Positions 24,793-25,893 of a DNA stretch of 64,000 nt are shown here, one piece after another. Each line of letters opens with the position of its first letter. Position 1 is the first letter of the stretch. The notes below the pieces were generated by a model. The model searched no databases. It had not been told where the DNA came from and worked only from the letters and a program-made list of their open reading frames with translations. This DNA is from Gammaproteobacteria bacterium (lineage in GTDB: Bacteria > Pseudomonadota > Gammaproteobacteria > GCA-001735895). Location: positions 42,048 to 106,047 of the forward strand of contig JBNKUM010000062.1 in assembly GCA_050298595.1 (NCBI GenBank), read 5' to 3'. A program made the translations under genes and the position numbers.

Positions 24793-25893
24793 ATGGCATT
24801 AAGTTCAACTGAAGAAATTATTGAAGATATCAAGGCAGGCAAGATGGTCATCATTATTGATGATGAAGACCAGGAAAGTGTAGGTGATTTGCTGATAGCT
24901 GCAGAGGCAGTCAAGCCTGATGATATCAATTTTATGGCGCGTTATGCTCGCGGTTTGATATGTTTAACCCTGTCTCAGCAACGCTGCCAGCAATTACGCC
25001 TACCCTTGATGGTTAGTGATAATACCCAGGCCACAGAAACTCATTTTACGGTTTCCGTAGAAGCTGCCGAAGGCGTAACTACTGGGATATCCGCAGCTGA
25101 CCGTGCAGTCACTGTACAGGCCGCTGTAAAAGCCGATGCATCTCCAGCCGATCTTGTCCAGCCAGGGCATGTATTCCCAGTTATGGCACGCAGCGGTGGG
25201 GTGCTTGCTCGTGCGGGTCATACAGAAGCGGGTTGTGATCTGGCAGGTCTGGCCGGATTTGAGCCGGCATCGGTTATAGTGAAAATTCTTAATGAAGATG
25301 GCGGCATGGCCAAATGCCCTGATTTGTTAAAGTTTGCCAAACAGCATGGTCTGAAAATTGGAGCTATAGCGGATCTGATCCGTTATCGCATAGAAAACGA
25401 AAAAACGCTGGAACGCATCGTTGAAACTCACTTCCCCACCGATTTTGGTGATTTTAGATTAGTGGCTTATGAAGATGCCATCGATCAGGAATTGCATCTG
25501 GCTCTGGTTAAGGGCGAGGTTAAGCCTGATGACATCACCCCGGTACGGGTTCATGTGCAGAATACGCTGTATGATTCCCTGTATGGAACCGTTGGTCGAG
25601 GCTGGCCTCTGAGCAATGTGATGCAAAAGATCAATGAATTAGGCCATGGCGTCATCGTTTTTTTACGGCAGTCAGAAACCCCACGACAGATGGTGCAAAA
25701 TATTGAAGCCGTTATTCGTGAAGAGCAGGGCAGGCAGGATGAAACTATTGGTGATGATTTGCGTACCTACGGTATCGGTGCGCAAATTCTGGCTGACCTG
25801 GGCGTGCATAAGATGCAGCTGTTATCTGCGCCGAAAAAATTTCATGCATTGGCCGGATTTGGACTCGAAGTTGTAGAGTATATTTCCGACTAA
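24793..25893 (+). CDS. ribB: RibBX-type DHBP synthase / GTP cyclohydrolase II-like fusion, catalytic motifs degenerate
   Basis: [29 protein letters not shown] present, but [10 protein letters not shown] and VIVKIL replace conserved motifs; C-terminal domain lacks Zn-binding Cys. Confidence 0.88.

Follow-up and report, generated by a model that had tools for sequence, protein, structure and literature searches.

The window, a stretch of 64,000 nucleotides from a gammaproteobacterial contig, was found to carry a riboflavin (rib) operon on its forward strand, in which a RibBX gene lay between ribE and ribH. The following features were assigned:

21895..22398, + strand: nrdR, the first gene of the cluster (ORF; same position in relatives)
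22405..23532, + strand: ribD, deaminase/reductase (PF00383 and PF01872)
23520..24092, + strand: homologue of the BPH-type proteasome, earlier labelled an Ntn-hydrolase (PDB 5ovu/5ovs, 1e-44)
24111..24767, + strand: ribE, riboflavin synthase (PF00677, two stretches)
24793..25893, + strand: RibBX gene, native and operon-encoded, 366 aa, with remodelled DHBP-synthase loops (ORF, translation, Pfam/NCBIfam matches and end-to-end match to PDB 6mnz)
24811..25386, + strand: DHBP-synthase-like N domain, residues 7-198 (PF00926, 266.9 bits)
24859..24888, + strand: degenerate acidic loop 1, ten residues in place of the canonical DDEDRENEGD (R37Q, N39S and E40V in E. coli numbering)
25282..25314, + strand: loop 3, eleven residues in place of the canonical EILNEDGSMAR (E174K and R184K)
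25411..25884, + strand: X domain, GTP-cyclohydrolase-II-like, residues 207-364, without zinc cysteines (PF00925, 150 bits)
25932..26408, + strand: ribH, lumazine synthase (PF00885)
26414..28331, + strand: nusB, thiL and pgpA, the downstream genes of the cluster (ORFs; same order in relatives)

The names nrdR, nusB, thiL and pgpA were presumed from synteny.

The Pfam scan of the 366-aa protein placed a DHBP_synthase domain at residues 7-198 (1e-79) and, fused to it, a GTP_cyclohydro2 domain at residues 207-364 (5e-44), which is the build of RibBX. The solved RibBX-type chain 6mnz was aligned over the whole protein (1-365 to 1-366, E 2e-119), thus the window RibBX contained neither a truncation nor a frameshift, and the open full-length frame claimed by the first-pass annotation was confirmed. 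The profile scores exceeded the cut-offs for PF00926 (266.9 against 26.4 bits), TIGR00506 (221.8 against 177.45 bits) and NCBIfam PRK14019 (522 against 513 bits).

The residues were mapped with phmmer, which aligned the protein without gaps to the RibB chains 3lqu and 1g57 (217 residues each); we take these, from the excerpted text of PMC10366380, to be the Salmonella and E. coli enzymes, respectively. Query residues 8-204 corresponded to chain residues 18-214 (offset +10), and Q27, S29 and V30 were placed on R37, N39 and E40, K164 on E174 and K174 on R184. The codons at 24859-24888 are gat gat gaa gac cag gaa agt gta ggt gat, hence the conserved acidic loop of DHBP synthase was altered by R37Q, N39S and E40V, and the glutamate expected at position 174 was replaced by lysine. 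Both changes had been claimed before from the letters alone, and the translation and the RibB alignment bore them out. Glu174 is said to be the catalytic acid/base, in work by Liao et al. from 2002.

All five positions (R37, N39, E40, E174 and R184) were 100% conserved in 184-185 other collected sequences. A second sample was drawn from 150 representatives of clusters at 50% identity; 148 of them had a residue at each position, and among these R37 was kept in 144, N39 and E40 in 145 each, E174 in 142 and R184 in 138. Position 174 was occupied by Glu in 142 and by Asp in 5 of these representatives, and those lacking R37 or E174 were themselves multiply degenerate. Of the N-domain columns, 64 reached a conservation of 97% or more across 185 other sequences; 8 of the 64 were changed in at least one of the five degenerate sequences and 56 were kept. 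All eight fell within the two loops, at E. coli positions 35-42 (loop 1) and 174-184 (loop 3), and R37, N39, E174 and R184 were altered in all five sequences. The RibBA of G027, a sole copy and presumably active, reads DDDDREDEGD in loop 1 and MAK in loop 3, i.e., it carries R184K and a change at N39; therefore, only the losses of R37 and E174 were without a sole-copy precedent in the collected samples.

The rest of the pocket was largely preserved. The N domain of the window RibBX retained E28, D32, C57, H126, R140, H143 and T144, which in E. coli numbering are the metal ligands E38 and H153 together with D42, C67, H136, R150 and T154. E28 and H143 occupy the positions of Glu39 and His154 of V. 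cholerae RibB, described as metal-binding residues in the excerpts of PMC9305975 and PMC5228156. The loops that each subunit lends to the active site of its partner (TTGIS and PGH, as defined in the excerpted V. cholerae work, PMC5228156) were unchanged in degenerate RibBX. According to the same excerpts (PMC5228156), the activity of V. cholerae RibB was lost in the Glu39Ala, Glu41Ala and His154Ala variants, and the position of Glu41 (E. coli E40) is taken by Val in the window protein. A loss of DHBP-synthase activity in the native RibBX was inferred from these substitutions; an altered or residual activity may persist, given that the metal ligands and most substrate-contact residues were kept.

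The C-terminal domain lacked the zinc site. In the alignment to E. coli RibA (2bz0), the segment rvhsecltgdalfslrcdcg was matched by a stretch of the window protein ending in vgrg, and none of the three zinc cysteines was present, as the first-pass annotation had noted. The TIGR00505 score of 58 bits lay below the cut-off of 205.85. The window RibBX thus had neither the zinc site CX2GX7CXC of GTP cyclohydrolase II, as this motif is given in the excerpted text of PMC10366380, nor the family score, which is the state of a RibBX X domain and predicts that it is inactive as a GTP cyclohydrolase II. None of 19 conserved X-domain columns was changed. The earlier proposal that both domains were apparently inactive was accordingly upheld in one part, namely the near-invariant active-site changes and the absent zinc site, and weakened in another, by the retained E38, H153 and most substrate contacts.

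The first-pass annotation had further expected a ribA elsewhere in the genome or a replacement for it, and no ribA was detected by the genome search. The search for RibA or another zinc-type GTP cyclohydrolase II gave no match for the window genome (G000), for 22 of the 24 family genomes and for nine of the 16 other relatives, the nine including two closed genomes. GTP cyclohydrolase III was dropped as an alternative first step, since PF05165 had no match in G000. The rib operons of the genomes without RibA were compared and no extra gene common to them was found. The apparent absence of GTP cyclohydrolase II from many relatives whose pathway is otherwise complete suggests that riboflavin synthesis begins there with a step not yet recognised.

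The Ntn-hydrolase gene of the operon had been suspected of a link to the degeneration of RibBX. This was not borne out: the gene encodes a homologue of the BPH proteasome and occurs family-wide, in the rib operons of 22 out of 24 genomes of the family and in none of 16 genomes outside it, with dN/dS of 0.016-0.031. As it occurred in the operon whatever the state of RibBX, it was considered unconnected with the degeneration. A link between the BPH gene and the missing RibA was also rejected, since BPH was confined to family f1 and RibA was absent in other families too. In one genome (G025) a 205-aa ORF, unrelated to BPH and without a Pfam family, lay between ribD and ribE.

The native RibBX evolved under purifying selection. 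Over six pairs (dS 0.29-0.56) its dN/dS was 0.051-0.064, that is, well below 1, with values of 0.032-0.047 for the N domain and 0.077-0.106 for the X domain. The N domain was under the tighter constraint (0.03-0.05), therefore it must itself be doing something. The gene was intact in every genome examined. For canonical genes the baseline dN/dS was 0.021, taken from the pair G002-G007, the only unsaturated one among 28. Between G000 and its sister G004 the identity was 87.4% for RibBX, 94.5% for RibE and 96.2% for RibH, and in canonical pairs RibBX was as conserved as RibE, so the acceleration was specific to the native RibBX gene. The absence of catalysis-associated residues together with purifying selection is what defines a pseudoenzyme, and the inactivity of this one is predicted from its residues.

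A canonical ribB-type gene was located at G000:C75, outside the rib operon, and the expectation that a functional ribB would be found elsewhere was thereby supported, as far as canonical active-site residues can indicate function. The second copy was 57% identical to the native protein and 67-72% identical to the RibBX of Pokkaliibacter, Granulosicoccus and Photobacterium, among whose sequences it nested in the tree with 100/100 support. The syntenic site was empty in the sister genome G004, where 215 bp stood against a 2189-bp insert in G000. In G011 the second copy occupied a different locus; its flanks were 65-84% identical to genes of G000, and the gene itself 94%. Taken together, the tree and the insertion sites indicate that the second canonical RibBX was acquired by horizontal transfer. 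No FMN riboswitch was detected at the gathering score in the window or at five paralogue loci. The sole hits of the riboswitch search (V_AS9) lay antisense within the paralogue coding sequence and were taken as coding-sequence similarity.

The substitutions were common to three sister genomes and to further metagenome proteins. Both loops were letter-identical, with 0 differing letters, in contigs of three more runs of one study (X2 records 5 and 6, X3 record 9). An assembly error was ruled out by these identical letters and by the distinct genomes, and a private recent decay by the relatives carrying the same changes. Among 120 hits to the native protein, five lacked one motif reading, namely that of loop 1 in P0196, P0199 and P0200 and that of loop 3 in P0211 and P0219. 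The closest relatives read DDDNQESVGD, DDEDQESEGD, DDEGQESEGD and DDEDPESEGD in loop 1, which was different in all five crown sequences despite 94-96% overall identity; positions 25, 26, 27 and 30 varied within the crown. The codons of K164 and K174 were identical across four crown genomes, and Q27, S29, K164 and K174 were fixed across the crown at dS of 0.3-0.6, a pattern that looks like selection for these residues rather than mere release. P0123, 89% identical, was a basal intermediate with Q37, D38, S39 and Q184, and with E174 still present.

Within the genus, the degenerate operon copy was present in five genomes (G000, G001, G010, G011 and G012), all five of which also encoded a second canonical RibBX. 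The eight single-copy genomes (G002, G004-G009 and G013) were all canonical. This association of 5/5 against 0/8 is to be read as about two independent events rather than 13. A counterexample was G039, in which both of two RibB-type copies were canonical. In the tree, G000, G001, G010 and G012 grouped together with 100/100 support on a stem of 0.13, against 0.04 for the adjacent canonical G004, and G011 paired with the canonical G013 (95/84) on a branch of 0.20 against 0.029. By this topology, the degenerate pattern arose twice independently, on the crown stem and in the more distant congener G011. The two lineages took different codon paths: from CGT, the R37 codon went to CAG in the crown and to AAT in G011, and from GAA the E174 codon went to AAA and CAA, respectively. 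Of the 13 stem substitutions, 5 fell at positions that had changed in G011 too (hypergeometric P 0.0015).

Other degenerate loops were found among metagenome proteins, in unrelated lineages and with other substitutions than in the window RibBX. These were AKKGQENKGT, DDDDENLGGV, DDDDDRLGGV and DDDDSHNEGV (P0275, P0298, P0371 and P0373), with Asp at the E174 position and no zinc motif. P0298 represented a cluster of 68 members at 90% identity and P0275 one of 7; P0371 was 296 aa and P0373 was 291 aa long, the latter ending in an unrelated oxidoreductase-like stretch. A search of 400 genomes of the class with P0298 returned no close relative, and one distant canonical relative at 56% identity.

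We proposed, as a reading somewhat better than even, that DHBP synthesis passed to the foreign copy and that the native RibBX was preserved for another RibBX role. The foreign canonical RibBX would most likely make 3,4-dihydroxy-2-butanone 4-phosphate now, and the native copy, relieved of this task, would have shed the residues needed for catalysis only, located in two mobile active-site loops, while all conserved positions outside loops 1 and 3 were retained in both domains. The native protein would then stand apart from ordinary enzymes and from decaying pseudogenes alike, and its value would lie in another property of the protein. We infer that the best candidates for this function are regulation or binding by the X domain, or a dimeric scaffold of the DHBP-synthase fold, possibly keeping sugar-phosphate and metal binding. 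The first-pass annotation had assumed a non-catalytic role: the intact gene, its purifying selection and the canonical copy elsewhere fit a retained protein that does not make DHBP, but a residual activity would still be compatible with the residues. Its suggestions of a lumazine-synthase cargo or a scaffold received no support. The same residues (E38, H153, D42, C67, H136, R150 and T154) count against the takeover, as they seem to exceed the needs of a pure scaffold. They are also what favours a native RibBX that is still a working DHBP synthase, with loop changes that are tolerated or tune the kinetics and with both copies supplying DHBP. Such an enzyme would agree with the N-domain dN/dS of 0.03-0.05, with the place of the gene between ribE and ribH, with the TIGR00506 score above its cut-off and with the R184K and N39 variant of the sole-copy RibBA. 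It was nevertheless judged unlikely: R37 and E174 are invariant in 184-185 sequences and kept in 144 and 142 of 148 representatives with multiply degenerate exceptions, the genus carries the substitutions only alongside a canonical second copy, loop 1 differs in all the nearly identical crown sequences, and Ala at the position of E40V abolishes the V. cholerae activity in the excerpts of PMC5228156.

A protein with a new function was considered, in which the remodelled pocket would bind sugar phosphate and metal, and would catalyze another reaction or serve as a ligand sensor regulating flavin synthesis, perhaps paired with the foreign copy in a heterodimer. Both lineages arrived at an amide at 37 (Q or N, by two base changes each), acquired Ser at 39 and Lys at 184, and gave up the acid at 174 for K or Q; this convergence speaks for it, as do the fixation of these residues in the crown and the intact pocket residues and partner-site loops. 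So does the example of RibB G108S, a single change that redirects the E. coli enzyme to DXP production. A DXP shunt, with the RibB variant replacing Dxs, was itself rejected as superfluous because a full-length Dxs of 628 aa is encoded. No candidate reaction or partner emerged, the continuing drift of crown loop 1 fits relaxation better than a finely tuned site, and all the changes are of the kind expected from transitions at freed sites, so that a new function was given only a small probability. An early-stage pseudogene, a redundant copy in neutral decay but not yet disrupted, would account for the redundancy with the canonical copy, the loss of catalytic residues and the faster branches. 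It is already disfavoured and seems highly improbable in view of a dN/dS of 0.05-0.06, far from 1, of reading frames without a stop or frameshift in five genomes and the metagenome members at crown dS up to 0.56 and a saturated stem, of 56/64 and 19/19 conserved columns kept in the N and X domains, and of an identical outcome reached twice.

A broader and decidedly speculative reading is that RibBX has an essential function independent of DHBP-synthase chemistry, possibly as part of the missing GTP step in Gammaproteobacteria without RibA. The X domain could, for example, bind GTP or release its pyrophosphate and cooperate with a ring-opening partner. A twelve-residue stretch of the native X domain resembles the stretch that holds the Arg128 position in true GTP cyclohydrolase II, and the foreign copy reads FNQVGAGSQIL in this region. 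Vibrionaceae and their allies, the donor group of the foreign copy, encode, as far as is known, a separate RibA. Under such a reading the degenerate RibBX would be a single-function form, a bacterial counterpart of plant RIBA3 that a foreign RibBX could not replace.

RibBX proteins occur widely in Proteobacteria. Under the takeover by the foreign copy, a natural dissection was performed twice: a foreign canonical RibBX came in, the native one shed DHBP-synthase loop residues, and the purifying selection stayed strong, which points to a RibBX function needing neither known catalytic activity. The degenerate RibBX is also a natural protein in which such a function could be studied without a DHBP-synthase background, and it offers a clean, replicated example in which the displacement of a native gene by a foreign one stopped halfway. 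Caution in annotation is also advised, as every naming source labels such proteins as DHBP synthase or as a bifunctional enzyme and even PRK14019 scores above its cut-off.

No report of a RibBX whose DHBP-synthase site is degenerate turned up in our literature search. The described RibBX of Shewanella oneidensis, Aeromonas salmonicida, Acinetobacter baumannii, Rhodopseudomonas palustris and Bradyrhizobium ORS285 share with the window protein the build of a DHBP synthase and a zinc-less X domain and the place in the rib operon. In the excerpted texts that define RibBX (PMC10012899 and bioRxiv 10.1101/2025.05.05.652280) the X domain "likely regulates" the synthase domain and its regulatory role is left unexplained. 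The N domain of the described proteins is an active DHBP synthase, whereas that of the window RibBX lacks R37, N39, E40, E174 and R184 in its loops. According to the excerpts of PMC10012899, the A. salmonicida RibBX retains RibB activity and this species has a separate RibA, in contrast to the window genome, where none was found. The canonical RibB enzymes (E. coli 1g57, Salmonella 3lqu and V. cholerae 4p8e/7uez; V. cholerae residue roles in the excerpts of PMC5228156 and PMC9305975) share the fold, the PF00926 and TIGR00506 matches, Glu38, His153 and most pocket residues; the window protein differs by the remodelled loops 1 and 3 and by the fused X domain.

A precedent was found in plants, where RIBA3 carries exchanges at essential DHBP-synthase residues. 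As stated in the excerpted text of PMC3509567, AtRIBA3 showed no measurable DHBP-synthase activity in vitro and did not improve the growth of an E. coli ribB mutant; RIBA3 lost DHBP synthase and AtRIBA2 lost GTP cyclohydrolase II, both in vitro and in E. coli complementation. As in the window, full-length fusions were kept after the essential residues of one domain had been exchanged. However, each of the plant proteins has one working domain, which explains its retention, whereas the window RibBX lacks the canonical catalytic residues in both domains, and therefore no known activity explains why it was kept.

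The native RibBX was encoded within the gene order nrdR-ribD-BPH-ribE-ribBX-ribH-nusB-thiL-pgpA, and a second RibBX was located elsewhere in the same genome (G000). The features were as follows.

23520-24092, forward strand: BPH-type proteasome homologue, matching PDB 5ovu and 5ovs (1e-44)
24793-25893, forward strand: native RibBX, open reading frame of 366 aa
24859-24888: acidic loop 1 of native RibBX
G000:C75, about 58219-59322: foreign RibBX reading DDEDRENEGD and EILNDDGTMAR, with an X-type (GCHII-like) C domain

The Pfam models DHBP_synthase (residues 7-198, 1e-79) and GTP_cyclohydro2 (residues 207-364, 5e-44) matched native RibBX. 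It scored 522 bits on the NCBIfam RibBX-like model PRK14019 (cut-off 513) and 58 on the RibA model TIGR00505 (cut-off 205.85), and its alignment with 6mnz, a solved chain of the RibBX type, ran from end to end (E 2e-119). When native RibBX was aligned without gaps to the RibB chains of E. coli and Salmonella (offset +10), Q27, S29 and V30 stood opposite R37, N39 and E40, K164 opposite E174 and K174 opposite R184. None of the three zinc cysteines of E. coli RibA was present in the X domain. The ORF, Pfam matches and alignments confirmed all details of the first-pass annotation, namely a degenerate acidic loop, lysine at E174, absent zinc cysteines and a full-length frame. The metal-ligand positions E28 and H143 were retained, and valine occupied the V. 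cholerae Glu41 position. According to PMC5228156 and PMC9305975, Glu39 and His154 are the metal ligands of V. cholerae RibB, and the Glu39Ala, Glu41Ala and His154Ala replacements abolish activity.

Both loops were letter-identical in contigs of three further runs, all from one study. R37Q, N39S, E174K and R184K were common to the species-level relatives G001, G010 and G012 (95-96% identical), which together with G000 formed the crown genomes. Metagenome proteins belonged to this degenerate group as well: P0122, with Pro rather than Gln at position 37, and the fragment P0156, which covered loop 3 only. An assembly artefact or private decay was therefore ruled out, and the substitutions proved to be shared by relatives. 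S29, K164 and K174 were fixed with identical codons across the four crown genomes; loop 1 differed in all five crown sequences (positions 25, 26, 27 and 30) despite 94-96% overall identity. The metagenome protein P0123 (89% identical) looks like an intermediate stage of degeneration, because it lay at the base of the crown group with Q37, D38, S39 and Q184, yet kept E174. The native copy of G011, a more distant congener (77% identical), read DDEDNESEGE in loop 1 and QILNEDGSIAK in loop 3.

The five degenerate sequences were compared with 185 other RibB-type sequences (the 120 best matches to the paralogue, loci and tree rows, leaving out rows without GHTE and L009, L010, L011 and L014, which duplicated genomes already included). 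Sixty-four N-domain columns were at least 97% conserved; 8 of these were altered in any degenerate sequence, all within loop 1 (E. coli 35-42) or loop 3 (E. coli 174-184). R37, N39, E174 and R184 were altered in 5/5, and none of the 19 conserved X-domain columns was affected. Since this set was skewed toward Vibrionaceae-like sequences, a second sample was used, for which 1.84 billion proteins were scanned and 150 representatives of clusters at 50% identity were taken.

Canonical residues (E. coli numbering) kept among cluster representatives; 2 were gapped at each position, leaving 148.
R37: 144/148
N39: 145/148
E40: 145/148
E174: 142/148, with Asp in 5 more
R184: 138/148

E174 reportedly has a catalytic role (Liao et al. 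2002). Six representatives departed at R37 or E174. P0332 and P0356 had a canonical loop 1, and their departure, at position 174, fell within a divergent or missing C-terminal stretch. The other four (P0275, P0298, P0371 and P0373) were multiply degenerate, RibBX-like proteins from public metagenomes, in which the acidic loop was broken, Asp stood at E174 and the zinc motif was absent; where named, they were annotated as DHBP synthase, and P0298 represented 68 members clustered at 90% identity. Because of these further doubly degenerate lineages, double degeneration of RibBX is probably recurrent.

A search of G000 (98.6% complete) with PF00926 returned exactly two matches, the native gene and the copy on C75, so that the canonical ribB-type gene expected elsewhere in the genome was indeed found. 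Within the genus, the five genomes with a degenerate operon copy were exactly the five with a second copy, and all eight single-copy genomes were canonical; one genome had no match. As relatives are not independent, this association amounts to about two events. Two RibB-type copies do not always bring degeneration, as shown by G039, in which a RibBX and a true RibBA were both canonical.

The second copy was concluded to be of foreign origin, with two separate insertions. It shared 57% identity with the native copy and 67-72% with RibBX of Pokkaliibacter, Granulosicoccus and Photobacterium. A maximum-likelihood tree with 36 rows placed the five paralogues in a 100/100 clade nested inside the group of these three genera, and the native copies in a separate 100/99 clade. 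In the four crown genomes, genes for TmcA, a class-III aminotransferase, a VTT-domain protein and a beta-carbonic anhydrase lay upstream of the foreign copy, and a 103-aa SorC-type regulator remnant lay directly after it. The same neighbourhood was intact in the canonical sister G004, where the distance from the carbonic anhydrase to a downstream 136-aa ORF was 215 bp, versus 2189 bp in G000; G004 therefore carries the empty site. In G011 the foreign copy was split over two contig ends overlapping by 141 identical bases. The gene itself was 94% identical to that of G000, and its flanks matched other G000 contigs (65-84% and 71-94% identity), therefore indicating a different locus and a separate acquisition.

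The 103-aa ORF of G000:C75 (L119:7340-7651) comprised a helix-turn-helix joined to no more than the final 54 positions of a sugar-binding domain of the SorC type, and resembles what a deletion would leave of a regulator brought in with the inserted DNA. The Rfam model V_AS9, a Vibrio antisense RNA, scored just over its gathering score at L119:6320-6420 (reverse strand), antisense inside the foreign ribBX, and at the same place in L116, L117 and L118; this match probably reflects Vibrio-like coding sequence that has been conserved, not an RNA gene.

The native RibBX degenerated independently in the crown and G011 lineages. The crown copies formed a 100/100 clade with a stem of 0.13 (0.04 for the adjacent canonical G004 branch), and G011 paired with canonical G013 (95/84) with branches of 0.20 versus 0.029. 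The R37 codon changed from CGT to CAG in one lineage and to AAT in the other, and the E174 codon from GAA to AAA and to CAA. Thirteen substitutions were fixed on the crown stem, 8 of them on columns at least 90% conserved, and 5 of the 13 fell at positions also altered in G011 (hypergeometric P 0.0015 under a uniform-site model). The rate speed-up was specific to RibBX; in three canonical-canonical pairs, conservation of RibBX about equalled that of RibE.

Protein identity between degenerate and canonical congeners.
G000-G004: RibBX 87.4%, RibE 94.5%, RibH 96.2%
G011-G013: RibBX 84.5%, RibE 86.2%, RibH 90.4%

dN/dS (Nei-Gojobori) among the four crown genomes (6 pairs, dS 0.29-0.56); foreign copy, 10 pairs among five genomes.
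Native RibBX, whole: 0.051-0.064
Native RibBX, N domain: 0.032-0.047
Native RibBX, X domain: 0.077-0.106
ribE: 0.002-0.020
ribH: 0.016-0.033
nusB: 0.009-0.065
BPH: 0.016-0.031
Foreign copy: 0.030-0.052

The values for native RibBX lay below 1, in line with the first-pass view of a retained gene, and neutral decay is disfavoured. Compared with the sole canonical pair of 28 with unsaturated dS (0.021 for the whole gene, 0.014 in the N domain, 0.027 in the X domain), the native copy was somewhat relaxed, about 2-3 fold, yet far from neutral. The simplest account is a displacement by the foreign copy that stopped halfway. The foreign copy would have taken on DHBP synthesis, and the native copy would have shed residues with a purely catalytic role. 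Everything else in the protein would still be needed, including its fold, the loops of the dimer contact, most residues of the pocket and the X domain in its entirety. We infer, from sequence and by analogy, that native RibBX has lost DHBP-synthase activity, because the replaced residues are invariant, the V. cholerae mutants are inactive and plant RIBA3 offers a precedent (PMC3509567). The X domain lacks GCHII activity and "likely regulates" the synthase domain, as stated in PMC10012899 and bioRxiv 2025.05.05.652280. Residual activity of native RibBX, or a new ligand-dependent function, may also be considered: metal ligands and substrate contacts were kept, the N domain was under tighter constraint than the X domain, and the same kinds of residue were reached by two lineages. 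Both stay alive as rivals to the halted displacement.

A functional ribA, also expected elsewhere in the genome, was not found. No zinc-type GTP cyclohydrolase II was detected in G000 with PF00925, TIGR00505 or NF001591, no RibA among all 35,640 six-frame ORFs (hmmsearch --max with a profile from relatives' RibA), and no GCH III in this 98.6% complete genome. The RibA cut-off was exceeded in only 5/41 genomes. No more than the X domain was shown by 22/24 family genomes, and 9/16 relatives from other families were RibBX-only, including two single-contig (closed) genomes. Despite the missing GCHII and GCH III, ribD, ribE, ribH and ribBX were intact and constrained, and some unrecognised activity appears to perform the opening step of the riboflavin pathway. 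In 2/7 genomes of a sister genus (L104 on G023:C150 and L105 on G019:C162), a protein of 275-277 aa that contains the zinc motif CLTGDVFGSERCEC was observed. This divergent RibA is extended at its N terminus and scored 156-160 bits on TIGR00505 (cut-off 205.85, not reached); no other zinc-type GCHII was seen in the family.

The supposed link between the operon's Ntn-hydrolase, here BPH, and RibBX degeneration was not supported. BPH lay between ribD and ribE, overlapping ribD by 13 bases, and was under strong purifying selection. It is a family trait unconnected with the degeneration, because it was held in this position in 22/24 family genomes and in 0/16 outside the family. BPH is not known to have an assigned function, so its constant location within a vitamin operon offers a lead. 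In G025, from another RibA-less family, the ribD-ribE gap held a 205-aa ORF (L132:8645-9259, reverse strand) unrelated to BPH and without a Pfam family.

No literature report was found of a conserved RibBX-type protein without the canonical residues of both domains, or of a link between such a RibBX and an acquired second copy; the key paper on RibBX, Brutinel 2013, may bear on this. RibBX with a dead C domain has been described, as have the dead GCHII of plant AtRIBA2 and the dead DHBPS of plant RIBA3.
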